A DNA stretch of 64,000 nucleotides from Gammaproteobacteria bacterium (GTDB taxonomy: Bacteria; Pseudomonadota; Gammaproteobacteria; JAJDYQ01). The notes beneath the pieces were generated by a model. It was not told the origin of the DNA. It worked only from the letters and a program-made list of their open reading frames with translations, and made no database searches. The position numbers and the translations under genes were made by a program. Positions 3,348 to 55,913 of the stretch are shown one piece after another; position 1 is the first letter of the stretch; the number at the start of each line of letters is the position of its first letter. Location: contig OY759969.1 of NCBI GenBank assembly GCA_963662865.1, positions 2,287,742-2,351,741 of the forward strand, written 5' to 3'.

Positions 3348-3516
3348 GATTTCGGCAAGATAAAATACGATTTAAAAACAAAAAATTGAATTAAATCAAT
3401 GGCATAAATAAATATCAATATTTCTTAATGCCAGAAACAGACGAATAATTTTAACACAAAAATTTTGTATCTGTCTGCATTCCATGATAGATTGGGAGAT
3501 CTACTAGTAGTTAGCA
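3348..3516 (+). other. putative attI / integron promoter region with a GTTAGCA crossover-like site at 3510
   Basis: AT-rich non-coding stretch between the intI start codon and the first cassette ORF. It ends in GTTAGCA, similar to the GTTAG(G/C)C cores of the downstream attC sites. Confidence 0.4.
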
Positions 3517-3539
3517 GGTAAAAACTTGAAGGGTGACTC

Positions 3540-3899
3540 ATGAGTAAACGATTAAGAGGTTCCTTCAGTGTCTACAAAGAAACCAATAAGTATAAAAACT
3601 TTGTGCAAGTTGAGATGCTTATCATTTCAATCATTATTGGCTATTCAGCATCATCCTGGTTTGTTTGGCTCATTTCATGTTTTTTGCTAGTAGGCGCACT
3701 TGGGACAAAAATCGAAATGATCATTGGCTGGGTTGTCACAATTTTATTGGCGATTTTGTCTACACTACTTTTATTCGAAGGCTCACAAAACCTAGAATTT
3801 AGTCTAGTTTTTGGTTTTTTACTGGGTGGAGTGTCTTGGTATATACATGATTGTGGAAACATATACTGGCGTGACTTTGTTGAGGCTGAATGGTGGTAA
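3540..3899 (+). CDS. small membrane protein (cassette 1, first ORF)
   Basis: 119 aa with three or four hydrophobic helices. AT-rich. Preceded by the RBS-like GAAGGG. Confidence 0.45.
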   Translation: MSKRLRGSFSVYKETNKYKNFVQVEMLIISIIIGYSASSWFVWLISCFLLVGALGTKIEMIIGWVVTILLAILSTLLLFEGSQNLEFSLVFGFLLGGVSWYIHDCGNIYWRDFVEAEWW

Positions 3900-3912
3900 T
3901 TAAAAAGAAAAA

Positions 3913-4632
3913 TTGAAAATTATCATGCCAGACCATAGCCAGGCAAATATATTTGATGTGCACCCATCACAAGAAATGGTAGCACTTTTTAAAGACAAAC
4001 CATTTCAAGGCCAATCACCCGAAAAAGCCTCCATTATATTTCTGAGCTCTGATGCAAATTATTCTCCAGAAATTTCAAACCATCCTTTTTTCAATTTTAT
4101 TTTGGAGTACCAGAAAAATGGAATTGCATTTTGGAAAAAATATGACTGCCATCATCCCTTCCTTTTATCAAACTATCCATTCAACAAAAATACAGGTGGC
4201 GTTCCTTTTCATCGGAATTTTAGGAAAATAGGGCTCAGCACTACCCATATTGAAAACATCTCATTCCTGGAACTTCTGGATATACCAACAATAGGGAACA
4301 AGTCAAAAAACAAAAAACTCTTTTATGATCTCGTCTCAAAATCTCACCTTGCGTACATAGAAAACCTTATGATGGGAGACTCCAGCAAATTATTTTTTGT
4401 ATCTAATGGTGTTTTGAAAGATATTGAAAAGTTAAAAAAACGGTTTCCAGTATTTAAATGGCTGGATCTGCCAGTGACGGGGCGACTTTCAAAAGGAATT
4501 AAAAGCAATAAAATCGAAGAGATTTATCATTTTTCTTCTTGGCAAATACATGGTCAACTTGCTGAAATTTCAACAATAATAAATAAATGGCTGGAAAAAT
4601 CTGCTAACAAATCACTTCAGCGGATGGCGTGA
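3913..4632 (+). CDS. hypothetical protein (cassette 1, second ORF)
   Basis: 239-aa ORF, AT-rich. Its 3' end overlaps attC-1. No family recognised. Confidence 0.45.
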   Translation: MKIIMPDHSQANIFDVHPSQEMVALFKDKPFQGQSPEKASIIFLSSDANYSPEISNHPFFNFILEYQKNGIAFWKKYDCHHPFLLSNYPFNKNTGGVPFHRNFRKIGLSTTHIENISFLELLDIPTIGNKSKNKKLFYDLVSKSHLAYIENLMMGDSSKLFFVSNGVLKDIEKLKKRFPVFKWLDLPVTGRLSKGIKSNKIEEIYHFSSWQIHGQLAEISTIINKWLEKSANKSLQRMA

Positions 4633-4733: not shown

Positions 4734-5471
4734 ATGGAACTGTTCTTTCTCCTTCTGCTAATTTTTATCGTTTTACCCCTGGTATTTAGCTCGGCAAAGT
4801 ACAAGGGGTATGCGGGTGAAAGAAAAGTTGTACGTAAGCTTGGAAAATTTATCGATTCGATCGAGGGGGGTAAAGCATTCCATAATGTAACATTAGCAAC
4901 GCTCGATGGAACCACTCAAATTGATCATGTTCTTTTAGCCCCCCAAGGTATTTTCGTTATTGAAACTAAAAATATGACGGGATGGATATTTGGAGGGGAG
5001 TGGCAAAAAAGATGGACACAAACCATATATAAGAAAAAAGTAAATTTCCAAAATCCTATCCACCAAAACTACAAGCACGTAAAAGCACTGGAAAAACTGC
5101 TAGAAGCGAACCCTGAAATCATATTCAATGTTGTTGTTTTTGTAGGTGATGCCAAGTTTAAAACTGCTATGCCTGACAATGTTATGAAATTAAGAGGGCT
5201 GTTACCTTATATAAATTCGCATTCTGAGCACGTTTTAACCGGCAGAGACATTGAAAAGTATGATTCATTGATAGATCGAACCATTTCAGGCAACGTGGTA
5301 TCTGATAAACAGCACGTGCATAATGTTAAGAGAAATCGTGAGAACCCTATTTGTCCAAGGTGTGGAAGCTCTATGGTGCTGCGCACAGCGAAAAAAGGAA
5401 AGAATAAAGGCTCACAATTTTGGGGGTGCTCTGGTTTTCCATCATGCAGGGCAGTCAAGAAAAAGGGCTAA
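4734..5471 (+). CDS. NERD-domain protein with C-terminal topoisomerase-type C4 zinc finger (cassette 2)
   Basis: N-terminal TM segment. The NERD-like core is GERKVVRKL...IDHVLLAPQGIFVIETKN. C-terminal CPRCGSSMVLRTAKKGKNKGSQFWGCSGFPSCR matches the zf-C4 Topo-DNA-binding pattern. Confidence 0.7.
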   Translation: MELFFLLLLIFIVLPLVFSSAKYKGYAGERKVVRKLGKFIDSIEGGKAFHNVTLATLDGTTQIDHVLLAPQGIFVIETKNMTGWIFGGEWQKRWTQTIYKKKVNFQNPIHQNYKHVKALEKLLEANPEIIFNVVVFVGDAKFKTAMPDNVMKLRGLLPYINSHSEHVLTGRDIEKYDSLIDRTISGNVVSDKQHVHNVKRNRENPICPRCGSSMVLRTAKKGKNKGSQFWGCSGFPSCRAVKKKG

Positions 5472-5710: not shown

Positions 5711-6919
5711 ATGAGTAAATTAAAACTGGGAGTTATTGGAACTTCAAGAAAAGAAGATGAACGACGTTTCCCAATTCATCCAGAGCATTTGTCTCGTATT
5801 CCTGATGCTATTCGTCGTCAGCTAATATTTGAGGAGGGTTATGGAGCACCGTTTGATATTTCAGATTCAGAGATTGCTGCTCAGGCGGGTGGGATTGCAA
5901 CACGGCATGAATTATTAGCAGACATTGGCATGGTAATCATTTCAAAACCTGTACTGGCTGATTTATTGGAGCTCCGTGAAGGAGGAACGTTGTGGGGTTA
6001 TGTGCATTGTGTACAACAGCAGGATATCACTCAGGCTGCTTTGAACCGTAAGCAGACACTTATTGCCTTTGAGGATATGTTTGTTTGGTCTCCAAGCGGA
6101 CAACGATGTCGACATACATTCTATAAAAACAACGAATTAGCTGGTTATTGTGCGGTACTGCATGCCTTACAGCTTAAAGGAATCGATGGGCACTACGGCA
6201 ACCGCCGTAAAATAGTTATTTTCAGTTTTGGTGCAGTCAGTCGGGGAGCGATATACGCGCTCAAGGCTCATGGTTTTAGAGACATTACCATTTGTATTCA
6301 GCGCCCAGACCATGAAGTTCGTGAAGAGGTGCTTGATTGTCACTACGTTAAGGTTAGAGCGGGTAACGAAGACGAAGCGCGGATGATGGTGGTGGAGCAC
6401 GATGGAGCTAAAAGACCGTTGGCTGAACTCATTCTTGAAGCAGATATCATTGTAAATGGAACCTTTCAAGAAACGGATAATCCTACTGACTTTGTGATCG
6501 AAGAGGAAAGTTCGTGCCTTAAACCTCACAGTCTTATTATTGATGTCAGTTGTGATCAGGGAATGGGGTTCTTTTTTGCTAAACCAACCACATTTAAACA
6601 ACCGATATTTAAATATAAAACGATAGATTACTATGCTGTGGATCATACACCGAGCTTCCTTTGGGAAAGCGCAACTCGCTCAATTTCTGCCGCACTTATT
6701 GTATATTTATCAACGGTTCTATCGGGCCGTGATAGTTGGCAGAAAAATGAAACTATCAGATATGCTATAAATATTGATGGTGGTGTTATTAAAAAAACCT
6801 CAATTATTACGTTTCAAAATCGCGAATCGAATTACCCCCATAACCATATCAACCGACTTGAAAATAAATCCAAGAAGCCTAACAAATCAATCCAGCCGAC
6901 CGCCTTCGGCGGCGGCTGA
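5711..6919 (+). CDS. alanine dehydrogenase/PNT-family (N5-carboxyethyl-ornithine synthase-like) protein (cassette 3)
   Basis: 402 aa. N-terminal LKLGVIGTSRKEDERRFPIHPEH, followed by a Rossmann segment IVIFSFGAVSRGAIYAL. The family assignment is from pattern recall only. Confidence 0.45.
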   Translation: MSKLKLGVIGTSRKEDERRFPIHPEHLSRIPDAIRRQLIFEEGYGAPFDISDSEIAAQAGGIATRHELLADIGMVIISKPVLADLLELREGGTLWGYVHCVQQQDITQAALNRKQTLIAFEDMFVWSPSGQRCRHTFYKNNELAGYCAVLHALQLKGIDGHYGNRRKIVIFSFGAVSRGAIYALKAHGFRDITICIQRPDHEVREEVLDCHYVKVRAGNEDEARMMVVEHDGAKRPLAELILEADIIVNGTFQETDNPTDFVIEEESSCLKPHSLIIDVSCDQGMGFFFAKPTTFKQPIFKYKTIDYYAVDHTPSFLWESATRSISAALIVYLSTVLSGRDSWQKNETIRYAINIDGGVIKKTSIITFQNRESNYPHNHINRLENKSKKPNKSIQPTAFGGG

Positions 6920-6933
6920 TTGAGGCGTTAGGC
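6876..6933 (+). other. attC site 3
   Basis: GCCTAACAAATCAATCCAGCCGACCGCCTTCGGCGGCGGCTGATTGAGGCGTTAGGC, with a GCCTAAC inverse core and a GTTAGGC core around a short palindrome. Confidence 0.75.
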
Positions 6934-6956
6934 GCAAACCACAAACTAATGTTTTG

Positions 6957-8042
6957 TTAGGATTTTTCATTTAACAGAAACTCCATACCTGCCAACTCAT
7001 GTCCATTTACGATAATGCTAATCGAATGATTACCTGCATAATATTCTCTTGTTGAAATTTTCTTGAACGAAAAAGATTTCTTAACAGTTTTGTTATTACT
7101 ATCAACTTCTGACTCAGATATTTTGAATATTTTCCTTGATAAATTACCGCTTTTCTTAACAAAATCTATCGCATATTCAATTCTAAGCCTTCCGAGCTTT
7201 TGTTTTTGCGATTCAATTGTAAAAGAGAAATTCAGATTACCTTCCATTTCAACGGATTTTTGGGTTGTGAAATTTTTAATTTCAAGATGCTCTGGCTTTG
7301 AGAAGCCAAACAGATTCATTATCTCCGGCTGCCCTTGCTTTAGTAGCGTGCGACAAGCGTGCTTAATAATCCAGTCTGTTCGTTGATTGCTACCCAGCCA
7401 GCTCTTGGCTATCTCTATTACAATCTGTGGGTTATCTTTTGATATGTCATTCAGATTATTGGCAACGCTCCTTCTTACATATTCACTATCATCATTTTTC
7501 AGTTTTTCCAATATCGGCAGGATTTGGGATGGATCTCGCTTAAATTCAGGAAGTGCCATTGCCCAGGGTAAGCGAGGCCGACATCCTTCAGATGAAAGCC
7601 GACGTACATGGTGATTTTCTGATTCAGCCCATAATTCCATTTGTGCCATCATTTTCTTATTATGTTTTTTAATGAATGGTCGAACCGCAGACTCAGAACT
7701 TGCATACGAGGTGAAGTGCTCCAAAGCATGAATGGACTCTTCATACTGATCTAAGCCATACAGCTCCACAAAACCCGGAAAAAACATATACTGAAATCCA
7801 CTGAATTTTGATGACAATTTCATTAGTATTTGAATAGCATCAGAATAATCCATTGGTAAATATTGGTGCAATGATTCTGAAATATGTTTCATCCGCTCCT
7901 TTAGTTCTTTTTCTTTCCATTCATTATCAAATATATGAGAAGAAAACCCATCTTCATCAAAATTCTCATGCAGGCTTGACACTTGTTCGCACAAGGATTT
8001 TACAAGTTCAACGTTGTATAAGTTTTTTAATGGTTCCGGCAT
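6957..8042 (-). CDS. DNA alkylation repair protein (AlkD/AlkC-like HEAT-repeat glycosylase family) (cassette 4, reverse orientation)
   Basis: 361 aa. YVRRSVANNLNDISKDNPQIVIEIAKSWL matches the DNA_alkylation repair-enzyme family signature. Confidence 0.55.
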   Translation of the reverse strand: MPEPLKNLYNVELVKSLCEQVSSLHENFDEDGFSSHIFDNEWKEKELKERMKHISESLHQYLPMDYSDAIQILMKLSSKFSGFQYMFFPGFVELYGLDQYEESIHALEHFTSYASSESAVRPFIKKHNKKMMAQMELWAESENHHVRRLSSEGCRPRLPWAMALPEFKRDPSQILPILEKLKNDDSEYVRRSVANNLNDISKDNPQIVIEIAKSWLGSNQRTDWIIKHACRTLLKQGQPEIMNLFGFSKPEHLEIKNFTTQKSVEMEGNLNFSFTIESQKQKLGRLRIEYAIDFVKKSGNLSRKIFKISESEVDSNNKTVKKSFSFKKISTREYYAGNHSISIIVNGHELAGMEFLLNEKS

Positions 8043-8997: not shown

Positions 8998-9810
8998 ATG
9001 CAGGCACAAGAAATTAATCTGGAAGAATATTTTATCCAGGACGAGCCGTATTATGAGCCGGTTGGTAATGAAATCGTTGTTTTTGAGGCTGCCTACAACA
9101 ATGGTTTGCCGATTTTATTAAAAGGACCGACCGGCTGCGGTAAAACCCGTTTCATGGAACACATGGCCTGGAAGCTGGAACGTCCGCTGATTACCGTTTC
9201 CTGCCATGATGACCTGACAGCCTCCGATCTTGTCGGGCGATTTCTGGTAAAGGATGGTGAGACGGTTTGGGTGGATGGGCCACTGGCGCGTGCGGTGCGT
9301 GCCGGGGCGGTCTGTTATCTGGATGAGGTGGTGGAGGCCCGCAAAGACACGACCGTGGTCATTCATCCGCTTGCCGATGATCGCCGGGTGCTGCCGATGG
9401 AGAAGATCGGCCACCTGCTGGAAGCGGGGCCGGAGTTTTGTCTGGCCATGTCATATAATCCCGGTTATCAGAGTGTCCTGAAGGACTTGAAGCAGTCAAC
9501 GCGCCAGCGATTTATCGCTCTCGAATTTGACTATCCCGATGCGAATCTTGAAACCCGCATCGTCGAGAAAGAGGCGGATCTGGATGCGCAAATGGCGGGC
9601 TTGCTGGTCAGATTTGCCGGTATGACGCGCAATCTGAAAGGTAACGGGCTGGATGAAGGCGCCAGCACGCGCCTGTTGGTACATGCGGGCAAGCTGATGG
9701 CGGCCGGCGTGGACCCGGTATCAGCCTGTCAGAGCGCGATAGCCCAGGCGCTTACGGATGATCCGGAAATGCTGGCGGCAGTCAACGAGCTGTCCGCATC
9801 GTTATTCTGA
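8998..9810 (+). CDS. cbbQ: CbbQ/NorQ/NirQ-family AAA+ ATPase (RuBisCO activase subunit-like)
   Basis: [55 protein letters not shown] and [21 protein letters not shown]. Length 270 aa. Near-colinear match to CbbQ. Confidence 0.85.
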
Positions 9811-23866: not shown

Positions 23867-26623
23867 TTATTCCGTAAGGATGTCTTTTATGTCCGATGCT
23901 TTTTTTGAAACCGCAAACTTCCATTTGCCGAATCTGCCGTTTTCGTTGACGGCTTTAATCCATTCTTTCATGTATGCGTGTTTTGTATCGTCTTTTTCTT
24001 TTTGCTGGCCCTTGGTTTCCAGCACAAGCAATTCTCCCGATTTCATCCGCACAAGAAAATCGGGGCGGTATTTTTTCACAATGCCATTGTAGATATATAA
24101 AACCTCAAAACCGAGATGGTCATTTTTAACCCACGCCTCAACCGCTTTATTTCTATCAAGCTCGAAAGATTCTGATGCTTCCCAGGTGCTGTCATAAACA
24201 CAGTAATTGATATGGCTTCTTTTCGCGGCTTTGCAGGGTTTGCCGGTCCGCCATGGGCGCATGTCGCCGGTTGATCGAATCGGATGGTTGTCATCAAGCA
24301 CAAGAGCGGTTTTCTCTGTATTGTTAAATTCTATTGCCTGCCAGAAATGACGAATGATCTTTGACATATTGAGCGTTATCACAAGATGTCTTCTCTTTAC
24401 ATCCTGATTAAAGAGAGCGGGCATTATCTGTATGCGGTCTGAATCCAGAAACTGTTCCGCAAGACGCACAAGTTCTGCCATCAATAGCGGCGCAGATGCC
24501 GGCCATTCAGGTTTCATTTCCTGCCAGACGATTTGTGCCGCCTTGAATACAAGGGTTTGTTTGCGGAATTTTTTCGCCAGCTTTTCAATATCAATGTCTT
24601 CAATTTGGGAAACGTCAGGCTTGTTATTTACCGTGGGCGCGATCTCCGCTATTTCAACGGTTGTTGAAGTATCCAGTTCCAGTTTTTTTATTTTTTTCCA
24701 ATCAATGGCAAGTTCGGGCCTGTAAGTTCTGTCTATGCGGATGACATTGGGCCACGAAATGGCAAACTGTCTCTTTTCATCCACAGGCCGAATGATCGTT
24801 TTCGGCGGCGGAGGCGGTGGAGGTTTATCCATGTCTTCGTGTGGCAGAAAGCTGAACGGCACACCGAAAACATTGACATATTCGGCATCAAATAATCCCG
24901 TGTCTTCATTGATTTCATAAGAAGCACGGCGTAGCCCACGCCCGATAATCTGCTCACATAACAATTGACTTGTGAATGCCCGCAGCCCCATAATCTGCGT
25001 CACTGTCCTTGCATCCCAGCCTTCGGACAACATTCCAACGGATATAACATTCTGTACTTGATCACCAGGTTTCCCTTCCTGCCCGACCGTGTTCACTTTT
25101 TCACGCAGAATTTCAGCCTGTTCTTTTTTCGTTGCTTTGCGACTACCTTCCCTGCCTGCTTTTGTTGTGCCCGGTTCCGGCTCTTTTTCCTCGGCTTTTT
25201 TCAGCACTTCCGAGTCGATATGCAAAATCCCATTGGGAGCGCATAACTCATGAATGCTAATGTCCTTATTGTCAAAGGCATACTTGATTCTGGCTGCTGT
25301 TTCCGTGCGGTTTGCGACCGTAATCATCACCGGCGGCGTTTTCGCCCCTTGTCCCTCCCATATTTCTTTTGTTTTTAACCAATCGTAACCGAGCAGGAGA
25401 TAGGCGTTTCTTACAAGGTCGGGAGGCGGTTCATGCGGTTCAGCCTTTCTGTTCAGGTCATCTTTGACTTCCTCTTCGTTGTAGATGTGATACAGGCGGG
25501 ATTTATGGGTACTGGCATTTGGCAGAGCGTCATCACGCACAACAACACGGGGTGTTTTGACAAGCCCTGATTCTATGGCGTCACTGAGTCCGAAATCGCT
25601 GACAATCCAGGGGAACAACATCTCTTCCGATGTCTTCTTGCCGCTTGGTGCAAATGGCGTAGCAGAAAAATCAAAGCAATTCAAAATCCCCCTGGTTTTG
25701 TGTATGCGGTCAAGGCCACCAACCCATTTTGTGGCCTCGTCTATTTCCTCTTTCCTGACACCTGCTATTTTTGACTGTGCCGGAACACGCCAGGCATGAT
25801 GGGCCTCATCGTTAATCACAATCAGATTTCTGGCATTGGCCATATCACCGAGAACTTCGCGGGTATATGCCTCATCGCTTTTCGCGCCGCGTTTATCCAC
25901 CCCTTTCTTCTTTTTGATTTTTTCCTCACTTTCCCAGTTCAGGGTATGCCAGTTTCTTATGAGAACCTTTGCCTGTCTCAGCTTTTCGAGCAGGGACAAC
26001 GGCACAATACCGAACTCATCGTAATAGTTCTGCCTGTTTGATGGCATCAAAACAGAAAGACGCTCCCTGACGGTCAGATTAGGCGCGACAATAAAAACAT
26101 TTTGTGAAAACCGCCTGTCTTGAGGGTAAGTGGCGCGATTGATGGCCTGCCACGCAATCAGCATGGCCATGACAACGGTCTTCCCTGTACCAGTGGCGAG
26201 CTTGGAGCACAAACGGCTCAGTTCTCTGTCCTTTGCAATTTCAATTCCGGTCTTTTCCGAGTCGGGAGTTTCAATAAACCATATCAGCGTTTCAATCGCT
26301 TCCATCTGGCAGAAGAAAAACGGGAAATCTCTTTGCTCGTTGTCCCTCCAGTGTTCAAGCAGGGCTTTGGTAATACCCGTAATTCCGGGGCAGCCCGCTT
26401 TGCACCAGGAGTCAACACGTTTACGGATTTGGTTGACGGTCGGCAGGGGAACAAAAATGCCCTTGTCCTGATGCGGTTTTGCCTTCGGGTCGGCAACCAT
26501 ATAACCCGCTTCACGACGACCCTCCACACGCTCAAGCGGGGCGTCTTCCTCGACGAACTTCCAGTGCTTGGAAGGTGCAGAGCAGGGGGAGTTGATTATG
26601 AGTGATGAGGATTTTTCAGGCAT
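23867..26623 (-). CDS. res: Type III restriction endonuclease subunit (Res): SF2 helicase plus C-terminal PD-(D/E)xK nuclease
   Basis: Helicase motif I LATGTGKTVVMA and motif II VINDEAHHAW. C-terminal endonuclease motif YRPDFLVRMKSGELLVLETKG. 918 aa. Confidence 0.85.
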   Translation of the reverse strand: MPEKSSSLIINSPCSAPSKHWKFVEEDAPLERVEGRREAGYMVADPKAKPHQDKGIFVPLPTVNQIRKRVDSWCKAGCPGITGITKALLEHWRDNEQRDFPFFFCQMEAIETLIWFIETPDSEKTGIEIAKDRELSRLCSKLATGTGKTVVMAMLIAWQAINRATYPQDRRFSQNVFIVAPNLTVRERLSVLMPSNRQNYYDEFGIVPLSLLEKLRQAKVLIRNWHTLNWESEEKIKKKKGVDKRGAKSDEAYTREVLGDMANARNLIVINDEAHHAWRVPAQSKIAGVRKEEIDEATKWVGGLDRIHKTRGILNCFDFSATPFAPSGKKTSEEMLFPWIVSDFGLSDAIESGLVKTPRVVVRDDALPNASTHKSRLYHIYNEEEVKDDLNRKAEPHEPPPDLVRNAYLLLGYDWLKTKEIWEGQGAKTPPVMITVANRTETAARIKYAFDNKDISIHELCAPNGILHIDSEVLKKAEEKEPEPGTTKAGREGSRKATKKEQAEILREKVNTVGQEGKPGDQVQNVISVGMLSEGWDARTVTQIMGLRAFTSQLLCEQIIGRGLRRASYEINEDTGLFDAEYVNVFGVPFSFLPHEDMDKPPPPPPPKTIIRPVDEKRQFAISWPNVIRIDRTYRPELAIDWKKIKKLELDTSTTVEIAEIAPTVNNKPDVSQIEDIDIEKLAKKFRKQTLVFKAAQIVWQEMKPEWPASAPLLMAELVRLAEQFLDSDRIQIMPALFNQDVKRRHLVITLNMSKIIRHFWQAIEFNNTEKTALVLDDNHPIRSTGDMRPWRTGKPCKAAKRSHINYCVYDSTWEASESFELDRNKAVEAWVKNDHLGFEVLYIYNGIVKKYRPDFLVRMKSGELLVLETKGQQKEKDDTKHAYMKEWIKAVNENGRFGKWKFAVSKKASDIKDILTE

Positions 26624-26649: not shown

Positions 26650-27444
26650 CTAATGAAGATACGACTCTATGTTTTGCTCAATGGGCTTCCTTGAATCTAT
26701 TGAACTGACTTGTGAGCCTGCAATATTTGCATCTATCAATCTACTTAAATGTTTGGATGGAATTTCTTCCTGGTTTTCAAAAATAAGCAGCGTAGATTTT
26801 TGTATCTCGTGAATAAAAAAATGTTGCAAGGTTATGGTAACTAACTTTGCTTTGTCCTGATTCGGAATTCCAAACAGAAAAAGAGGGATTCCTTCTTCTT
26901 TTTTCAGATAATAATCAATGATGTAATTCTCAGAGTTGTCTAAATCAGGCACCTGATAATCCTGCTCTAATTTAATATCAGGCTTATCGCTGATGATCTG
27001 TTCCAATAGCTCCTTTAAGTCTCTGTAAAAAGTGGATGAAAATCGATCTCTGTTCAGATAAGACAAGTCATAAACCTGATTCAGTGCCTGGCTTAAGCGA
27101 AAGATGCCTTGAGAGATTTGTTCAACTGAAACATCCACATAAAAATTGCCATTGTCCTCGTTGATTTGATTTTCAGCGAGTATCTGGTTCATCAATTTCC
27201 CTTTGTTACCTTTGAAGTACCCATCAACATTTGGAGTGTAGTAGCTCAATCTCATCATGGTATCTGCCCCATCGCTAATACGTACTTTGCCAACGTCAGT
27301 TTCCTGTAAATAGATAGAGTAATGGTCGCCATCCGGATATGAGAATGGGTTTGAGATCATTTTCTTTCCATTCTGACGCTCTATCAGTTTGATGTCGGTA
27401 CATAATTGACGGCAGAGTTCTTTCTGTAATTGATCTTTATTCAT
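26650..27444 (-). CDS. hypothetical protein (tentatively DUF1828/DUF1829-like), embedded between mod and res
   Basis: 264 aa, AT-rich. Overlaps the upstream ORF by 4 nt, so likely translationally coupled. The DUF assignment is from memory of FSYPDGDHYSIYL-type N-terminal domains and is unverified. Confidence 0.45.
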   Translation of the reverse strand: MNKDQLQKELCRQLCTDIKLIERQNGKKMISNPFSYPDGDHYSIYLQETDVGKVRISDGADTMMRLSYYTPNVDGYFKGNKGKLMNQILAENQINEDNGNFYVDVSVEQISQGIFRLSQALNQVYDLSYLNRDRFSSTFYRDLKELLEQIISDKPDIKLEQDYQVPDLDNSENYIIDYYLKKEEGIPLFLFGIPNQDKAKLVTITLQHFFIHEIQKSTLLIFENQEEIPSKHLSRLIDANIAGSQVSSIDSRKPIEQNIESYLH

Positions 27445-27920
27445 GCTAAAAAACCCTCAAAGAGATTCTGTTGTGGAGAATTCGAATGTATGCTGTAGTC
27501 TTCACATAAGCATTTGAATGCGCCATCCAGGTTTTCATACCTTTTGGTTGTTTGCGTGTCTTCATGCTCTGGGCTTCTATCGCCTCTATTGATACTTTCA
27601 GGAGTGGCATGATGGATGTGGCATTCATGGCTCGCCACATTGTTTTCATGGTTAGAACCGTTATAGCGGGAAAGCATGATGTTCTTACCGTCTTTTTCAA
27701 CAAGACGAATGCCACAAGAGAAATTCTCCATATTTGATTCATTTTGTCGGGCAAAAACCTTTATAGATAAATCAGACAAGTGATCAGGCTTATCGACACC
27801 GTCAAACTGAACATCAAAATTCCATTGCTGACTTCCTCTTTGGCTGGATTTTTGCTCCTCTTCTATGGTTTTGGGAATTTCTCTAATTGATTTCAATATT
27901 TCCTCTGAAATTTCCATCAC
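27441..27920 (-). CDS. hypothetical His/Cys-rich protein (HECHIHH motif), embedded between mod and res
   Basis: 159 aa. SRYNGSNHENNVASHECHIHHATPE is a possible metal site. The ORF starts immediately after the remnant ORF stop. Confidence 0.45.
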   Translation of the reverse strand: MMEISEEILKSIREIPKTIEEEQKSSQRGSQQWNFDVQFDGVDKPDHLSDLSIKVFARQNESNMENFSCGIRLVEKDGKNIMLSRYNGSNHENNVASHECHIHHATPESINRGDRSPEHEDTQTTKRYENLDGAFKCLCEDYSIHSNSPQQNLFEGFLA

Positions 27921-28192
27921 TCCACCTCTACAATCTCCATCACCTTCAAACTCTCAATCCTTCGATCATCCATGGTTCGAATGGTTTCAATTGCCTCACT
28001 CCGGCGGAAAAAGAATGGGAAATTCCTTTGTTCATCGTCCTGATGCAGTTTTGCCTTCGGGTCGGCAACCATATAACCCGCTTCACGACAGCCTTTCACA
28101 CGCTCAAACGAGGCGTCTTCCTCGATGAACTTCCAGTGTTTGGAAGGTGCGGCGTAGAGGGAGTTGATTATGAGAGATTTTAGGGCTAACAT
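27917..28192 (-). pseudogene. chimeric remnant: res 5' end (with an internal deletion) fused to a mod-3'-end-like sequence
   Basis: The 91-aa ORF MLALKSLIINSLYAAPSKHWKFIEEDASFERVKGCREAGYMVADPKAKLHQD|DEQRNFPFFFRRSEAIET|IRTMDDRRIESLKVMEIVEVE aligns to Res aa 8-52, then Res aa 93-112. Its tail resembles the Mod C-terminus VKIVDDRGIESLKVINVIQRK. The DNA at 28000..28192 is roughly 85-90% identical to 26318..26623. Confidence 0.8.
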
Positions 28193-28758
28193 TTTAAATC
28201 GCTGAAGGAAATTTTTTCCAAAGAGTGGATAACTTTGAAGTTCTTACCTCTGTACCAGCACTCGCCTATCGGCTGAGGTATTATTCGTTGCTTATTCAGT
28301 CTTTCTCCTTTTTCCCCTTCTTTCTCTGCAAGAACAACAAAGTGTTTTTTAATTTCAAGTTTAATATCAAAATGAGCCCACATCATTGAGACCAGATATT
28401 CCCAAACAGGAATAGTAAAAAGTATTTGTTTGCATGCTTCTCTAGGAATGCCATTTTTATCGGGAGACAAAGTTTCTTTTATCTCTAGAAAATAAATATC
28501 CATACCATTTTCATTCTGCGGCACTATAACCAGAAAATCACAAGATTTCTTGTAATCTTTTTGAATCTTTATTATCCTCGAGTGGGCTTTTCCTCCTGCC
28601 GGAATAGAAAGTTTAAGCCCATTATCAGGTGATTCAATTATTGTAAATCTAACTCGATTTCCTTCTTTCAACTCAAAACAGTTATTTTTTATAATTTTAC
28701 ATTGAATTTTTAGAAGTCTTTGTATTGCCTCCATGGGGTCAGTCATCTTTTGAATCAT
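28186..28758 (-). CDS. small PD-(D/E)xK-type nuclease-like protein
   Basis: 190 aa. SCDFLVIVPQNENGMDIYFLEIKET has the D...E-x-K spacing and resembles the Res endonuclease motif RPDFLV...LVLETKG. AT-rich. Overlaps the upstream ATPase gene end. Confidence 0.5.
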   Translation of the reverse strand: MIQKMTDPMEAIQRLLKIQCKIIKNNCFELKEGNRVRFTIIESPDNGLKLSIPAGGKAHSRIIKIQKDYKKSCDFLVIVPQNENGMDIYFLEIKETLSPDKNGIPREACKQILFTIPVWEYLVSMMWAHFDIKLEIKKHFVVLAEKEGEKGERLNKQRIIPQPIGECWYRGKNFKVIHSLEKISFSDLKC

Positions 28759-30121
28759 CCCTTTTCATATAGGTAAGCTCCGCAGATATCTGATTAATGC
28801 CATCAATCGCATTATCAAAAACCGTCATACCATCAATGCCCTGTTTATCTATAGTGCATTGTCTTAAGCCGCCTTTCTCACAAAGATAAGCTCTAACAGA
28901 TTTTGGGTCAAGATGATCAATCTCTGTATATTCTCTTTTATGCTTCACAAGAAACTCTTTTTTTCTGTCAAAATCACCGTGCAGCATAATCAGATTATTA
29001 ATTTCTTTGATTATGTAATCGCTGTAGGTTGTTATAAGAACTTTAATTCCTGCATTAACACAAAATACCAAGAGTCGTGCCATTAGAATTTGATTGGTCG
29101 GGCTAAGATGGCTTTCGGGCTCATCAATGATAAGGAGTTGATTTGGCGCAGCTTTGTGTTTTAAATAAAAATATAAATCAGAAAGCCCTCTTGCCGAGGA
29201 TGAAGCCAGATGTAATGGTATATTAAATTTATCCTTCCTTTTTCTTGAAATAAATCTGATTTCATCTTTTATCATCTTATAGTAGCCATCCATCATATAT
29301 CTTATTGGAACGACTGTATCATCTATCAATTCACTTTTTTGTCTTTGTATGTTTGACAAATCCCTGGTGAAGTCTATATTATCTTTTATGGGCTGTGCAT
29401 AACGTGCACTTTGTTTTTCAATAAAAATAAACGGATCAGAATGCCTATCGTCTGACAATTTTTGCAGCTCCTCAACCAACCTGTTCTTGGTAAAATCCAG
29501 TTCTTTATAAAACAATGAAATACCAAATCTTTCTGCGGATAAAATATGGAGATTGAGACCAATATTAAGTGCTGTTCTTGCAAGTAATCTGCATACACCA
29601 CTCTCAATGACCGATGACGGCATACTTTCTAAACCATCAGCTTCAAATATCAAATTTCTATCATCCTGAAAAAAGGATTTCATCGTTGCCTTATCTTTTG
29701 AAGGGAACTTGATTGCATCTGATGTCGTTTGATGGTCTTTTCCCCAGTCAAGTTGGAAATGTGCCCCTTCAAATTCGCTTCTTGGAGAGCTGAATACCTG
29801 ATGAATAATTTCTTGAGAAAAGAATTGATATGCTCTGTTGATCAACTCATTACGTATTTTTTCGTATTCTTCTAATTCAATACGTGCTGTGCCTGTCTCT
29901 TCTATCTGTCGTGTGACCTCTTCTATTTTTTCCTCAAACCATTCAGGGAAATCAATTATATCATAAAGGGGAAATCCATTTTTACAAAAATCTAAAAACC
30001 CATAAAGGGTATAAACAAGGTAAGTTTTACCGGTATTATTCTGCCCTGCAATGATCGTTAAATCTCCCAATTCCAGTTCGGCATCCTTGATTGGCCCGAT
30101 ATTTTTGAAGGTTGCTTTCAT
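28739..30121 (-). CDS. ABC-type AAA ATPase (AAA_15/AAA_21-like, OLD/Septu/PARIS-type) without a fused nuclease domain
   Basis: Walker A IIAGQNNTGKTYL near the N-terminus. A distal Walker B/D-loop LLIIDEPESHLSP, with a long insert between. Start placed at the ATG at 30121 (MKATFKNIGP) with an AGAGGAAAT RBS, 5 nt after the mod stop. Confidence 0.7.
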   Translation of the reverse strand: MKATFKNIGPIKDAELELGDLTIIAGQNNTGKTYLVYTLYGFLDFCKNGFPLYDIIDFPEWFEEKIEEVTRQIEETGTARIELEEYEKIRNELINRAYQFFSQEIIHQVFSSPRSEFEGAHFQLDWGKDHQTTSDAIKFPSKDKATMKSFFQDDRNLIFEADGLESMPSSVIESGVCRLLARTALNIGLNLHILSAERFGISLFYKELDFTKNRLVEELQKLSDDRHSDPFIFIEKQSARYAQPIKDNIDFTRDLSNIQRQKSELIDDTVVPIRYMMDGYYKMIKDEIRFISRKRKDKFNIPLHLASSSARGLSDLYFYLKHKAAPNQLLIIDEPESHLSPTNQILMARLLVFCVNAGIKVLITTYSDYIIKEINNLIMLHGDFDRKKEFLVKHKREYTEIDHLDPKSVRAYLCEKGGLRQCTIDKQGIDGMTVFDNAIDGINQISAELTYMKRDDSKDD

Positions 30122-30125
30122 GCTT

Positions 30126-32741
30126 TCATTTCCTCTGAATAACATTAATGACTTTGAGGCTCTCAATCCCACGGTCATCCACTATTTTAACCGCGATTCG
30201 GCTGTTTTTGCCCAATTCAAACGGCAGTGACACCGTGCCTTGGTAGGATTCTATCAGGCCTTCGTCTATTTCGGCCCTCAGGTTTCTGGCGAGTTTTGTC
30301 CAGCCGCCTTTGTCGTCTGCCATTGGGAAGAACACCTGACTCGGATACAGGCTTCTGCCGTCGTAGTCGGTGTCCAGCATCCAGACGGCGATTTTGTTTT
30401 CATCACCGGATTCCAGTTTGCCGGTTCGGGTATTGAAATAGTCAAAGCCGTTCATGTGCACCTGCCATTGCCCCATCAGTTCGCCTTTTCTGATTTGTTC
30501 TACCGCGATGTCCGGCTGGCCTATCAGCCAGAAACTTTCATTGCCTGACCGTTTCTTTTTCAGATCATCGGTTTGCAGGTCGGCGTTCATTTGCGCTTTC
30601 AGTGGTGTCACCCCGGGCCAGTTGGTTTCGTCTATATCCCTGGCGGCTTCGGGATCAAACTGAAAGGCGGCGAACACAACCATTTCAGGCTTTGGCATCA
30701 GGGTTGCCGCTTCCTGCAAGGCGTTTTCTACCTGTCGCGCTTCCAGCGGGGCGTGTTCCGGGCCGAAGGAGATCACCGCACGGCGGGGTTTATAGGCGGT
30801 TGCGGTTTCTCTTACTGCATCTGTACCGGAATCATCCGGTCTGGTTTCGGCGTCTGCATGCAGCCAGCGGCACGGCAGGGGGTCAATACGGGAAAATGAA
30901 ATGCGCTGTCCGCCCTTGCCGCGTATGCCGGTTTTCAGCAGTTCATCACGCCATTCGCTCTGGCGCAGGGTTTCGCCGGTGCGGGCAATGGTTGCATCTG
31001 CCGGAACAGGCGGCGCCTGTATATTATCAATCGGCTGCACGGTCGGAGACGGCACGGCTTCCGCGGTAAAGGGGCCGGTAACACGTGCCCGTTTACTGTC
31101 TTTTTCCGGTTGATCAAACAGGGTTTCCCTTGTAGATGGCTTTACGCCAATCAAAACGCTTGGGGATACCTTCGGAACATATTTATATTCAAACCCGCCT
31201 CCCACGCCTTCATCGGGCCAGGCCAGTTTGTAATAGTCAAATGTGGCGGTCATCAGTCGTTGTTTGGCGAGGGTCAATGCCACACGCGAAGTGTCGCAGG
31301 TGATCCAGCGGCGCCCCCATTGCTCGGCCATAGTGGCGGTTGTGCCGGAACCGCAGGTCGGGTCAAACACCAGATCGCCCGGGTCGGTCGTCATCAGGAG
31401 GCAGCGTTGTATGGCCTTAACCGAAGTCTCCACAACATATCTCTTTTCACTCGGATACATCTGCGCCGGCCAGATATTATTGATACGCCGTCCCGGCACT
31501 TCATCTTCGTACTTTTTCCACCTGAGAGAGTCCTGTTTTTCAAGTGCTTCCAGCCGCCCCATTTCTGCCAGTTTGTCCAAGCCCTGTTTTGAAACAGACC
31601 AGTGTCTGTTTTTTGAACATCGGAAAATTCTGCCCTTCCATTGATAGGGTTCGGACCTTCCGGTGGTAGAAACGCCCTGCGAGTCCAGTCCTGTGCGCTG
31701 ATAGATGCGCGCCCCCTCGGGCAGGAATTTATCGGGGTTGAAACGTTCTTCATCGGTTAATTTCCGGCAGGTGCCATCAGACAGTTCCACCGCCACATAA
31801 GAGCTAAAGTAATCCACGATTTCCGGTCGTGTCAGTGGTTCGTACAACTGCCGATACTTCGCTTGGTTTTTGTCTTTTGCATACCAGAGCAGGTAGTCCG
31901 AGACCTGCGGCAGGTGTTGTGTGGAACTGCCACTGGTAGTCGCAAATGAAATGGTGGCGATACGATTCTCCGCGCCAAAAATATCGTCCATCACGGTCCC
32001 GACTCGATGCACATTTTCATCGCCAATCTGCACAAAGCACGAACCGCTTTCGGTCAGCAATTCACTTGCCAGCAAAAACCGGTCACGCAGATAGGTCAGA
32101 TACGAATGAATACCCAGTTCCCAGGTGTCGCGGAACGCCTTGATCATTTCCGGTTCAGAGGTTAAGTCCTCATCTTTGCCATCCCGTACCTCGCGTTTAC
32201 CCACAAACGGCTGAAAATTGGAGCCGTATCTAATGCCATATGGCGGGTCCATATAGACACACTGCACCTTGCCTGCCATATTCTCTTTTTGCAGCAGCGA
32301 GTTCATCACCAGCAGCGAATCACCGGCAATCAGGCGGTTGCTCCAGTTGTTGGCGTGTTGGTAAAACTCGATCGCTTGGCGCAGCGGGATGCTCTGCTCT
32401 TCTTCAAAAAGCGACGCCTGTCTGCCGTTACCGCCGTTGCTGTTTCTGACCGCTTCGATGATGGTGCGCGGGTCAATGCGCTCGTGGACATGCAACGATT
32501 GGGTCGGCACGGCAAAAGATGTGTGCTCGGCCTTGCCGGCCCATTGCAGTTGCGGGTCCAGGTGCGGGTCGTGTTGCCAGGTCTTTTTTTCTCCTTTGTC
32601 CGGGTCGGTTTTGGGCGTTACCAGCCCGGCGGGCGGATTGTTTGCCCTTTCCTCGCCTCCATGAGAGTAGGATTCGATTTTGCGTTTTTTCGGCGGCAAG
32701 TTTGTACACACCTTTTGATGATTCCTCCCATGGTACCGCAT
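30126..32741 (-). CDS. mod: Type III R-M N6-adenine DNA methyltransferase (Mod, beta-class) with a long C-terminal extension
   Basis: LIAGDSLLVMNSLL...GKVQCVYMDPPYGIRYGSNF (motif IV) precedes motif I LVFDPTCGSGTTATMAEQWGRRWITCD. 871 aa versus about 600-650 for typical Mod proteins. Confidence 0.8.
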   Translation of the reverse strand: MRYHGRNHQKVCTNLPPKKRKIESYSHGGEERANNPPAGLVTPKTDPDKGEKKTWQHDPHLDPQLQWAGKAEHTSFAVPTQSLHVHERIDPRTIIEAVRNSNGGNGRQASLFEEEQSIPLRQAIEFYQHANNWSNRLIAGDSLLVMNSLLQKENMAGKVQCVYMDPPYGIRYGSNFQPFVGKREVRDGKDEDLTSEPEMIKAFRDTWELGIHSYLTYLRDRFLLASELLTESGSCFVQIGDENVHRVGTVMDDIFGAENRIATISFATTSGSSTQHLPQVSDYLLWYAKDKNQAKYRQLYEPLTRPEIVDYFSSYVAVELSDGTCRKLTDEERFNPDKFLPEGARIYQRTGLDSQGVSTTGRSEPYQWKGRIFRCSKNRHWSVSKQGLDKLAEMGRLEALEKQDSLRWKKYEDEVPGRRINNIWPAQMYPSEKRYVVETSVKAIQRCLLMTTDPGDLVFDPTCGSGTTATMAEQWGRRWITCDTSRVALTLAKQRLMTATFDYYKLAWPDEGVGGGFEYKYVPKVSPSVLIGVKPSTRETLFDQPEKDSKRARVTGPFTAEAVPSPTVQPIDNIQAPPVPADATIARTGETLRQSEWRDELLKTGIRGKGGQRISFSRIDPLPCRWLHADAETRPDDSGTDAVRETATAYKPRRAVISFGPEHAPLEARQVENALQEAATLMPKPEMVVFAAFQFDPEAARDIDETNWPGVTPLKAQMNADLQTDDLKKKRSGNESFWLIGQPDIAVEQIRKGELMGQWQVHMNGFDYFNTRTGKLESGDENKIAVWMLDTDYDGRSLYPSQVFFPMADDKGGWTKLARNLRAEIDEGLIESYQGTVSLPFELGKNSRIAVKIVDDRGIESLKVINVIQRK

Positions 32742-51489: not shown

Positions 51490-52135
51490 GCCACACAACC
51501 AGATAATCAAGCCAGACCAGCGAAAAAAGACTAGAACCTATCTCAAGTGTTATCCCAACTACAAAACGGTCCATCGGCGTTTTCAAAAATGGTGCGAAGA
51601 CCATGTGATTCGTGACATGATGGTGGAGCTTGTCAATACATTGAGAGCGCAAAATGACTTAAGATGAATTGGAATGTTTTATTGACGGCATGTTTTCTCC
51701 AGCCAAAGGTGGAGGCGAAGAAATTAGGTTGACCAAGCGCGGAAAAGGCATTAAAATCATGGCGATAGTGGACAAACACGGATTGCCTTTGTCGGTCAGT
51801 CCTCATGCGGCCAGTCACCATGAAGTGACATTAGTTCAACTGAGTTTTGATTTTTACATGATTGAGGCGAGGCCGGAAAAACTGATTGGAGATAAGTCGC
51901 TATGACAGCGCTCCGTTTGATGAAGAACTGGCAGAACAAGGAATAGAAATGATTGCGCCGCACAAGCGAAATCGAGTCAAGCCAAGTACTTAAAATGGGC
52001 GAAAACTCAGGCGCTATCAATGGCGCTGGTTGGCCGAATATTTTCGGTGGGAGTATTATGCTGCTAATTTCCTGGGCTTTGTTCAACTGGCTACTGTTAA
52101 TATCCTGCTTAAACAATTTTGATATAGGTCTTAAT
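51490..52135 (+). mobile_element. IS5-family DDE transposase gene remnant (frameshifted and 5'-truncated)
   Basis: Pieces in three frames: YKTVHRRFQKWCEDHVIRDMM; ECFIDGMFSPAKGGGEEIRLTKRGKGIKIMAIVDKHGLPLSVS...EARPEKLIGDKSYDS; [17 protein letters not shown]...RRYQWRWL. The IS5/IS1031-type C-terminal region carries a deletion relative to the second copy. Confidence 0.75.
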
Positions 52136-53219
52136 GGCAAGGAAGACGAGAAAAAGAATGTATTATATGCTGAAAAAAGCCTTATATCCATACTACGGCA
52201 TTAGAGTCACAATAAAGCGCTTGAATTATATATGGAAATTAGCGTTTTACCCGTTAATTATTCAAGTTGGGAGAAGAAAAGAGCCAGGCATAAATGAGAA
52301 TAAAAGTACACGAACAGTAAAAATTTTACATTGCTCCTCAAGAATAAATTTCACCACGTTAAAGAAGCAATTTAATACAGAAAAAGGATGGGGGAATATA
52401 GAATTCACAACAGACAGATATGCTGATTATTATCTTATAGTGGATCATCCGCTGAATGGTCAACTGTCATACTACAATCCGAAGCGAACGTTGCTTTATT
52501 TTGGAGAGCCTTCAGGATCTTCAATGCCAATGTTTAGAAGAATGTTCATGAAGGCATGGAGCGAGCTTGATAAAGAAAGCTTTTTTCATGTGTCACAAAT
52601 GCCGCACAGACGAATGTTTACGATCTGGCATCTCTCAAAGTCATACCATTGGTTGAAAGAAAACTCAATCCGTAAAACAAAGGTGTGTTCCACGGTAACA
52701 TCAGATCAGAGCCTGCTTCCTCTTCATAAAAAAAGATTGCAGTTCGTCACAATGCTGGATGAGCAGATCAGCATAGACATATATGGAAAAGTGAACAGGT
52801 TCAGGTCGCCACTAAAAGCCTGTTCGCAATATCAAGGGGAACTGCCGCCTATTGGAAAAGACAAAGGACTGTTTCCATACAAATATCATTTTGCTTCTGA
52901 GAACAACATTGAAGATAATTACATTACGGAGAAGCTAACGGATGCAATTCTGGCGGAGTGTTTATGCTTTTATTATGGGACGAAGACAGCTAAAGACTGG
53001 ATAGATAGCGAGGCATTTATCCATATAGATATAATGAGGCCTGCTGAGGCGATTAGCCTTATAAAAAAGGCAATTGAAAATAAAGAGTGGGAAAAGCGCA
53101 TCCACATTATACGCAAAGAAAAGCAGAAAATACTGGATGAAATGCAGCTATTTGCTGACATTGAGAATGTAATAAATCACAATGAAAAATTTATGCAGTA
53201 TAAAAAATTGAGAAAGTAA
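52134..53219 (+). CDS. GT10-family alpha-1,3-fucosyltransferase-like glycosyltransferase (AT-rich cargo between IS remnants)
   Basis: YHFASENNIEDNYITEKLTDAILAECLCFYYGTKTAKDWIDSEAFIHI matches the conserved FxxxFENSxxxxYxTEK block of alpha-1,3-fucosyltransferases such as the H. pylori FutA motif FENSQGYGYVTEKIIDAYFSHTIPIYWG. The true start may be an internal Met at about 52161. Confidence 0.7.
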   Translation: MARKTRKRMYYMLKKALYPYYGIRVTIKRLNYIWKLAFYPLIIQVGRRKEPGINENKSTRTVKILHCSSRINFTTLKKQFNTEKGWGNIEFTTDRYADYYLIVDHPLNGQLSYYNPKRTLLYFGEPSGSSMPMFRRMFMKAWSELDKESFFHVSQMPHRRMFTIWHLSKSYHWLKENSIRKTKVCSTVTSDQSLLPLHKKRLQFVTMLDEQISIDIYGKVNRFRSPLKACSQYQGELPPIGKDKGLFPYKYHFASENNIEDNYITEKLTDAILAECLCFYYGTKTAKDWIDSEAFIHIDIMRPAEAISLIKKAIENKEWEKRIHIIRKEKQKILDEMQLFADIENVINHNEKFMQYKKLRK

Positions 53220-55016: not shown

Positions 55017-55913
55017 CTATAAATCCTCCTGTTCAAATGGCTTAAAAAACTTGGGATCAATATCATAAGTTGTACGAGGCTTTACACCCAATTCTAGTTT
55101 TTCAAACATCTCCACTAGCTTCTCGCCATCTACCAGTTCTATTGGCCGAGCGCCATCGCGCATGGCTTCTCTTTTTGCATCAGATGTAAAACTTCCGGTG
55201 GTGAGCACTATGCCTTTTTCGGCGCGCCCCTCCATTGCGCCGCGAAAATCGCGTATTTGCGACGAGGTAACACTGCCTTTATATCGCTTACATTGGAACA
55301 CTACCTGGAAGCTGACGAGCGGATTAATCTGCAGGATCCCATTACCATCTATGCCTCCATCACCTGACCGACCGGTTACTTCCACGTTTTCGAAACCTGC
55401 TTCCCTTAAAAGCCTTTGGCATACACGCTCAAAACCAAAGGATGGTAGAGATTTTAATATTCTGAGTAATTCCTCTCTGTAGCTCGTATCCGACATATCA
55501 GAAAAAATAGTTTCATCGGATTTCTGTGAAAAATTTTGTTCATGATTATCTGTAGATTTTCTTGTTTTCGTCTTCGCTGATGCGTTTCTAGTACTTTTAG
55601 TAATTTCTTCTATCTCTTCTTCAGATAGTTGGTGAGCACGCTGCCCCTTTTCTGTTAAAGCCCAAACTCCCCTTGGCGAGGAATTATCAAGATAACCCGT
55701 TTTAACCAAATGAAATCTTGCCCAGTGAACTTGATCTTTATAATGGGATTGACCATTTTTTAGCGTTTTATCAAGAACATCATCACTTAAAGATAGATCA
55801 TTAGCAATTCTTGCGCAGACTTCATCTGGTCTAGCAGATCCTCCCAATTTCTTCAGCGCGGATATAAGTGGATTCATGTAAACTGCAAACGCTGGTCCAG
55901 CCATTCTTACCAT
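55017..55913 (-). CDS. mrr: Mrr-family restriction endonuclease (N-terminal winged helix plus Mrr catalytic domain)
   Basis: FERVCQRLLREAGFENVEVTGRSGDGGIDGNGIL ... QCKRY ... catalytic core of the Mrr_cat type. AT-rich. Lies between trpD and trpC on the opposite strand. Confidence 0.75.
   Translation of the reverse strand: MVRMAGPAFAVYMNPLISALKKLGGSARPDEVCARIANDLSLSDDVLDKTLKNGQSHYKDQVHWARFHLVKTGYLDNSSPRGVWALTEKGQRAHQLSEEEIEEITKSTRNASAKTKTRKSTDNHEQNFSQKSDETIFSDMSDTSYREELLRILKSLPSFGFERVCQRLLREAGFENVEVTGRSGDGGIDGNGILQINPLVSFQVVFQCKRYKGSVTSSQIRDFRGAMEGRAEKGIVLTTGSFTSDAKREAMRDGARPIELVDGEKLVEMFEKLELGVKPRTTYDIDPKFFKPFEQEDL

Follow-up and report, generated by a model that had tools for sequence, protein, structure and literature searches.

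The stretch of DNA considered here (below, the window) comprises 64,000 nucleotides (nt) of contig OY759969.1 from a gammaproteobacterial assembly (GCA_963662865.1) and contains a type III restriction-modification (R-M) operon, whose methyltransferase gene mod and restriction gene res enclose a pair of genes for an OLD-like ATP-binding cassette (ABC) ATPase and a small stand-alone PD-(D/E)xK nuclease-like protein. All genes of the locus lie on the minus strand in the order mod, ATPase, small open reading frame (ORF), 91-aa ORF, 159-aa ORF, DUF1828 gene and res, so that the mod stop codon and the res start are 3.5 kb apart (Table 1). The string is tightly packed, with neighbors separated by at most 4 nt or overlapping by their stop and start codons, the sole exception being 26 nt upstream of res, and waaA and a TolC-like gene flank the operon. 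With 1089 bits, Res is well above the cutoff of 800 in the NCBIfam model of the BPTD_3080 family (NF046055); it carries a PD-(D/E)xK nuclease domain of its own and together with the type III Mod defines the host operon. GC content drops from approximately 0.52 in mod and res to 0.35–0.40 over 27–30 kb. Across the loci compared, cassettes have a GC content of 0.34–0.37 and mod and res one of 0.41–0.60, a contrast that speaks for the cassettes as autonomous units. Promoter and terminator sites predicted over 23.5–33.2 kb were no commoner than in shuffled versions of the sequence, and no terminator fell between genes of the operon; the ATPase/nuclease module is probably co-transcribed with the R-M genes.

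Table 1. Position of genes, motifs and other features in the window (minus-strand genes are given by ascending coordinates).
Feature	Position	Strand	Basis
mod, type III DNA methyltransferase, 871 aa, first operon gene	30126–32741	−	MTase_III PDLC03632 2.4e-152 (PADLOC); N6_N4_Mtase 4.7e-29 (Pfam)
ABC (OLD-like) ATPase, 460 aa, PD-T4-4_A/PDC-M47A family	28739–30121	−	PADLOC, Pfam
Walker A GQNNTGKT, aa 26–33	30023–30046
Walker B LLIIDEPE, aa 329–336	29114–29137
H-loop segment TTYSDY	29015–29032
Tyr366 codon TAC, site of the ABC H-loop (switch) histidine	29024–29026	−	Alignment of relatives
Small stand-alone PD-(D/E)xK nuclease-like protein, 190-aa ORF	28186–28758	−	Motif, alignment, predicted structure
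D74 codon of the small protein	28537–28539
E92 codon of the small protein	28483–28485
K94 codon of the small protein	28477–28479
Fusion scar, 91-aa ORF, between cassettes 1 and 2	27917–28192	−	Translation, DNA alignment, NCBIfam BPTD_3080 1.5e-7, blastn vs L004
Cassette 2, gene 1: 159-aa protein, no known domain	27441–27920	−	22 homologues
Cassette 2, gene 2: DUF1828 protein, 264 aa, PDC-M24B-like	26650–27444	−	DUF1828 7.8e-18 (Pfam); PDC-M24B 1.2e-14 (PADLOC)
res, type III restriction helicase-nuclease, 918 aa, last operon gene	23867–26623	−	NCBIfam NF046055; ResIII 1.7e-10 (Pfam)
NERD nuclease-related domain protein, C-terminal topoisomerase-type zinc ribbon	4734–5471	+
Family 10 glycosyltransferase (fucosyltransferase-like)	52134–53219	+
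Mrr-type restriction enzyme	55017–55913	−	Mrr_N, Mrr_cat
tRNA-Asn	63465–63540

The ATPase ORF as such extends from 30178 to 28739, but Met20 is the first residue covered by the PADLOC and Pfam alignments, which makes 30121, 4 nt past the stop codon of mod, the likely start. The gene had been noticed in the first-pass annotation, made from the letters alone, as a 459-aa ABC-type AAA ATPase with an N-terminal Walker A and a distal Walker B; the ORF and both motifs stand, while the length has to be corrected by one residue and, as a matter of wording, the protein belongs to the ABC clade (OLD-like) rather than to AAA or AAA+ proteins. The ATPase of PD-T4-4 was likewise assigned to the ABC clade and not to AAA+ (Payne et al., bioRxiv 10.1101/2024.01.29.577857). 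In PADLOC, residues 20–471 of the ORF match positions 1–457 of 460 in the PD-T4-4_A profile PDLC04033 at 2.7e-108, followed by PDC-M47A at 1.1e-89 and a second PD-T4-4_A profile, PDLC04032, at 1e-63. The other ABC-ATPase defense families are far weaker (NsnB 1e-22, AriA 1e-18, GajA 3e-12, Old 4e-8, and PtuA 1e-7). Pfam recognizes AAA_15 (2.9e-17) and AAA_21 (2.8e-11) and no other domain, Toprim and HNH included, in accord with the earlier view of an OLD/PARIS/Septu-like ATPase free of a fused nuclease. The family is large, 2438 proteins being collected at E ≤ 1e-10.

For the downstream gene, the overlapping 190-aa ORF with a D…ExK spacing was read correctly at the first pass, except that its homologues begin at the fifth codon (MTD…) and the start is therefore probably 28746 (186 aa), so that 8 nt (ATGACTGA) are shared with the ATPase gene at its stop codon; for either start the overlap is within 8–20 nt. 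The motif region SCDFLVIVPQNENGMDIYFLEIKET occupies residues 72–96. A word-indexed search found only 8 close homologues, and a profile search over 1.84 billion cluster representatives gave 265 clusters, all of them stand-alone proteins of about 175–200 aa, from which 141 diverse members were taken for alignment and PADLOC scanning. D74, E92, and Q111 are invariant in this alignment and L30, C73, K94, P117, and Y121 are conserved in at least 90% of sequences; with D74 and E92 unchanged and K94 nearly so over such a diverse set, the D…ExK pattern is not a matter of chance. AlphaFold2 supplied with the 141-sequence alignment returned a model with a predicted local distance difference test score (pLDDT) of 92.3 and a predicted template modelling score (pTM) of 0.89, used here instead of the model from a shallower 8-sequence input (pLDDT 52). 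In this model D74 opens strand 75–80, E92 and K94 stand at the end of the paired strand 85–94, and a long helix 106–130 bearing Q111 and a strand 135–144 follow. The small protein, as modelled, thus has a restriction-endonuclease-like PD-(D/E)xK core fold with conserved D, E, and K residues, as anticipated from its motif. In a Foldseek comparison no PDB structure matched the model at E ≤ 0.001, and the 141-member profile found only a chance match among PDB sequences (E 1.5). The likeness to the Res endonuclease motif (RPDFLV…LVLETKG) suggested at the first pass turned out to be generic for PD-(D/E)xK proteins: in hhalign the motifs of the small-protein family and of the C-terminal nuclease domain of Res come in register at E 0.56, and a specific kinship of the two was rejected.

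No usable Pfam or NCBIfam family was matched by the small protein, and PDC-M47B (3.2e-8) is its only match in PADLOC. Its relatives are more informative: 91 of the 141 members match PDC-M47B, and the four PD-T4-4_B profiles are matched by 49 (PDLC04035, best 2e-19), 34 (PDLC04034), 11 (PDLC04037), and 10 (PDLC04036) of them. Since individual members match both PDC-M47B and PD-T4-4_B, the two appear from their profiles as overlapping descriptions of one superfamily, of which the small protein of the window is a divergent branch. The partnership itself is stable: a member of the small family directly follows the ATPase on the same strand in 55 of the 61 loci having enough downstream sequence, and the pairing persists down to about 30% ATPase identity. 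In the window the two adjacent co-directional genes, ATPase first, reproduce the gene order of PD-T4-4 and match both the A and the B profiles of PDC-M47. Judged by these profile matches, the pair is a divergent member of the already named PD-T4-4/PDC-M47 family and its architecture is ordinary. The first-pass annotation, aware of no known partner set of this kind, had thought of a variant or a new two-component system; this idea has to be abandoned, as the pair maps essentially cleanly to named systems, with the PD-T4-4 architecture shared by PDC-M47 and WonAB.

What is known about the family comes from its other members. PD-T4-4 came out of a functional selection in E. coli for defense against phages (PMC9519451) and has been classed as a PD-(D/E)xK nuclease with a P-loop NTPase forming higher-order complexes (bioRxiv 10.1101/2025.07.10.664194). 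The authors of the V. cholerae WonAB study placed three systems in one larger family: WonAB, PD-T4-4, and an operon described as "OLD-ABC ATPase + novel REase" (PMC12137116). The defense by WonAB is abortive and is abolished by each of the substitutions K34A, R182A, E300A, and H333A in WonA and K71A in the nuclease; upon infection translation stops and DNA is not degraded; and both the stability and the toxicity of WonB need active WonA (PMC12137116). PDC-M47 is a multi-gene candidate of PADLOC v2 that goes back to genes carried as embedded cargo by BREX, DISARM, or type I R-M (10.1101/2024.01.29.577857), for which no experimental validation was found in the literature. Two small overlapping genes, one of them for a nuclease, the Pfam description of AAA_21 as "putative AbiEii toxin, type IV TA system" and the toxicity of overproduced WonB (PMC12137116) might equally bring to mind a toxin-antitoxin (TA) addiction module merely stabilizing the R-M locus, with the nuclease as toxin and the ATPase as antitoxin. 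This seems to us very improbable, since toxicity of the WonAB nuclease needs the ATPase and its activity, which rules out simple sequestration (PMC12137116), and since it was by selecting for phage defense that the family was found (PMC9519451).

One residue sets the window ATPase apart from its relatives. The Walker A lysine and the Walker B Asp-Glu of a competent ABC ATPase are present, but the H-loop histidine is replaced by Tyr366: the segment reads TTYSDY in the window and TTHSDY in all three closest relatives, and among 117 relatives with a recognizable motif T-H-S is found in 116 and T-Y-S in the window protein only. The H-loop histidine is generally required for ATP hydrolysis in ABC ATPases. 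Its equivalent in WonA, when changed to alanine (H333A), leaves the system without defense and leads to the loss of WonB (PMC12137116). Since this mutant is defense-dead and the tyrosine is unique to the window ATPase, the window copy may, by analogy, be weakened or inactive. That it is a decaying or attenuated module of PD-T4-4 kind, no longer active in this genome, is a possibility we take seriously, although it is not the one we would expect: degraded versions of such loci are indeed found (L044, L045), whereas in the window both ORFs are of full length and the remaining motifs, as well as the nuclease D/E/K, are intact. The lone change of CAC to TAC, a single transition, may be a tolerated or regulatory variant or could be a base-calling or sequencing error, and tyrosine differs from alanine, so that residual or altered activity is conceivable. 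As a natural His-to-Tyr allele it offers a ready means to test what ATP hydrolysis does in the PD-T4-4/PDC-M47/WonAB family.

Comparison of related loci indicates where such pairs reside. The arrangement Mod-ATPase-small protein-Res with overlapping genes is repeated in L001, L002 (of which L003 is a second copy), and L004, the small proteins being 43–68% identical to that of the window; for L004, at about 81% nucleotide identity in blastn, synteny with the window extends past the operon, and cassette 2 and the scar are missing. In L046 (ATPase identity 53%) the pair is followed by an M78 peptidase and a DUF4411 gene before Res. Altogether, the pair or its ATPase lies in the mod-res gap or in its remains in nine loci, namely, the window, L001, L002, L004, L045, L046, and L113, plus the degraded L044 and L051 (Mod scar upstream only). 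L048 and L047 (ATPase identity 59% and 48%) have the pair by itself, surrounded by housekeeping genes. In the metagenome set, Mod and Res are absent from 63 of 64 loci as far as the available flanks extend, which is up to 5 kb and, for short contigs, much less. From these free-standing and R-M-less loci it follows that the pair is an autonomous module often riding in a BPTD_3080-type operon. Nested on the same strand between mod and res and occurring non-embedded elsewhere, it agrees with the description of embedded cargo (Payne et al., 2024).

The junction itself was surveyed in 32 related operons (L005–L041) from species-representative genomes of many phyla. The distance between mod and res ranges from 4 bp to 5.5 kb: in 7 operons the genes are adjacent (4–119 bp apart), and in the other 25 they are separated by 0.6–5.5 kb, nearly always with genes on the same strand. 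The GC content of the cargo is below that of both flanks in about 23 of 27 cases, L001 and L002 included. The cargo comprises HEC-01A/B (2e-153 and 6e-56), IetAS (3e-134 and 5e-247), an NsnB/HEC-03-like ATPase and an RmrA-like protein, each with a likely PIN partner, SoFic with PDC-S03, a PD-T4-6 kinase with a type IIG enzyme, a Ppl-like protein, an LmuB-like ATPase, a KAP NTPase, and several ORFs without a match. The same survey bears on the idea that mod, res, the ATPase, and the small nuclease form one composite four-gene restriction system, with the inserted proteins as extra type III subunits. Overlapping genes in the same order in the three independent loci named above speak in its favor, but we find it hardly credible, as mod and res are directly adjacent in some operons and enclose unrelated cargo in others, GC content breaks at the cassette borders, free-standing pairs occur, and Res has a nuclease domain already. 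The study that introduced "guilt-by-embedding" lists Hma, BREX, DISARM, and type I R-M as hosts, mentioning neither type III systems nor recombination scars (10.1101/2024.01.29.577857), and a literature search on PDC-M47, BPTD_3080, and embedding in type III R-M found no paper describing such an arrangement. The principle is thereby extended to type III R-M, a host class absent from the original list: a widespread family in many phyla holds variable defense cargo at the mod-res junction, sometimes as scar-delimited arrays. Such gaps are a cheap mining ground for candidate systems.

An example is provided by the second cassette of the window. Its 159-aa protein has no match in Pfam, PADLOC, or NCBIfam and only 22 homologues were found; the DUF1828 gene follows this homologue directly in 5 of 5 loci examined (the window, L045, L112, L113, and L114), the combination (159 or 160 aa plus DUF1828) recurring in the mod-res gaps of L112, L113, and L114 and beside the ATPase pair in L045. 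The combination is regarded as a candidate for an uncharacterized defense pair. Between the two cassettes, the 91-aa ORF consists of the first ~50 res codons, a short internal res piece, and the last ~20 mod codons; an estimate by eye from the alignment puts the nucleotide identity of its res 5′ part with the real res start at roughly 90%. The cargo position in the type III operon, the second cassette with the scar, and the role of the junction as a cargo site were all missed by the first-pass annotation.

Similar scars delimit cassettes elsewhere. In L045 (4879–9381) only short remnants of Mod and Res, with internal deletions, survive and both cassettes are intact, in the order opposite to that of the window: remnant Mod, the 160-aa gene with DUF1828, a Res(1–86)/Mod(771–871) fusion (6441–6995), the ATPase pair, and remnant Res. 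Synteny links this locus to L113 of the same sample, in which intact Mod and Res flank four cassettes (the ATPase/nuclease pair; an S8 protease together with an AAA+ ATPase; the 160-aa gene with DUF1828; and a Schlafen/AlbA_2 protein) separated by three scars (3381–3923, 7459–7986, and 9332–9595). L112 has at least five scars. Within one array the scar end points are similar, and no integrase or transposase is called among the array genes of L112–L114. Some scars are in-frame mini-ORFs with stop/start overlaps to their neighbors and others are out of frame; a role of in-frame scar ORFs as translational-coupling relays was considered and is not established, the scars of L112 being mostly out of frame. 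In the simplest reading, we infer, cassettes are exchanged and stacked by homologous recombination via the conserved 3′ segment of mod and 5′ segment of res, and the scars thus suggest a concrete recombination mechanism for the exchange of embedded cargo.

Carried further, this leads to a tentative proposal to which we attach rather low confidence: that the mod-res junction is a dedicated integrase-free platform for cassette arrays, where codons of the mod end and the res start serve as portable homology handles, arrays of up to five or more systems are co-transcribed, and the pair is one travelling cassette, possibly acting as a second-line guard that fires on R-M inhibition. A guard in the strict sense would resemble PrrC, with Mod and Res keeping the pair latent until a phage anti-restriction protein inhibits them, as in the case of PARIS and Ocr. 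The same-strand packing with 4-nt gaps or stop/start overlaps and the nine loci listed above are in line with this option; there is a precedent in PrrC, which is embedded in the EcoprrI locus and is gated as an effector by that R-M enzyme (EcoSal review, PMC12707154), and WonAB seems to act on translation, as an anticodon nuclease does. Nevertheless, we regard the strict guard as improbable, because many unrelated systems occupy the same junction and position alone is no proof of coupling, pairs at 59% and 48% identity are free-standing, L045 keeps the pair intact with Mod and Res almost wholly deleted, and PD-T4-4 and WonAB protect without an R-M partner (PMC9519451, PMC12137116).

Outside the operon, a second restriction function of the window is the Mrr-type modification-dependent enzyme, placed in an islet with GC content of 0.42 versus approximately 0.52. 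The NERD-domain protein lies in a low-GC stretch (0.37–0.42) at about 3–8 kb, and the glycosyltransferase in a kilobase with GC content of 0.39, near envelope-sugar genes at 61–63 kb.

Taken as a whole, the locus is in our opinion quite probably explained by a PD-T4-4/PDC-M47-type anti-phage module carried as autonomous cargo in a type III R-M operon, with a mode of action drawn by analogy to WonAB. The OLD-like ABC ATPase, probably dimeric, would act as sensor or regulator and the translationally coupled small nuclease as effector. If WonAB is a guide, ATP binding and hydrolysis by the ATPase would license and stabilize the nuclease, docked on the conserved C-terminal extension of the ATPase (aa ~390–460), and an infection cue would activate it and abort the infection; the target may be RNA, given that WonAB shuts off translation without degradation of the chromosome. 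The cassettes, with the 3′ end of mod on one side and the 5′ end of res on the other, would be swapped or stacked by homologous recombination leaving Res′/′Mod scars. Several points weigh against this explanation. The small protein of the window gives no match to any of the four PD-T4-4_B profiles at E ≤ 0.1, so its link to PD-T4-4 is transitive through relatives; WonA, WonB (AWB73975.1 and AWB73976.1), and the E. coli PD-T4-4 proteins are likened to the window pair by description and profiles and not by direct sequence, the tie to WonAB going back to the statement of its authors about PD-T4-4. The mechanism is likewise borrowed from WonAB, so that trigger and nucleic-acid target in the window clade may differ, the H366Y change may leave this copy non-functional, and the nine loci in which the pair or its ATPase sits in the mod-res gap or its remains possibly reflect functional coupling.

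Among known systems, OLD, Gabija GajA, PARIS AriA, Septu PtuA, and AbiL share the ABC ATPase clade with the window protein at the level of weaker matches, but differ from it in their effectors, the window having a separate PD-(D/E)xK protein and neither a Toprim, HNH, nor RloB-type partner or domain. Thus, neither the Toprim or AriB/DUF4435 component of OLD, Gabija, and PARIS nor the PtuB HNH protein of Septu is found, the ATPase and the small protein giving no DUF4435, Toprim, HNH, or PtuB match in Pfam and PADLOC, and the AbiLii/RloB-type partner of AbiL is lacking as well. PrrC of the EcoprrI type Ic R-M locus is comparable as an ABC-type ATPase-linked nuclease encoded between R-M genes; however, it is one protein chain that includes an anticodon-nuclease domain, and the R-M enzyme gates it physically, whereas the window encodes two proteins with a PD-(D/E)xK effector, and their free-standing relatives indicate autonomy. 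WonAB of V. cholerae WASA-1 (PMC12137116) likewise combines an ABC ATPase with a C-terminal extension and a small variant PD-(D/E)xK nuclease, but WonB is smaller (16 kDa), the system is prophage-borne, and WonA keeps the essential H-loop histidine where the window ATPase has tyrosine. PDC-M47 resembles the window pair by both profiles and by same-strand embedding in a defense system based on DNA modification, with the difference that the host here, type III R-M, is outside the embedding hosts listed in the preprint. Closest in design is PD-T4-4 of E. coli ECOR58 (Vassallo et al., 2022; PMC9519451), in which a gene for an ABC/P-loop ATPase is followed by one for a small stand-alone PD-(D/E)xK protein: the window ATPase matches PD-T4-4_A over its full length and relatives of the small protein match PD-T4-4_B, yet the small protein itself represents a divergent clade, and PD-T4-4 comes from an element resembling an integrative and conjugative element, while the window pair is nested within the genes of a type III R-M system. 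The PD-T4-4/PDC-M47/WonAB family is thereby enlarged, as far as profiles and modelling tell, by a divergent clade with a high-confidence fold model and clear putative catalytic residues.

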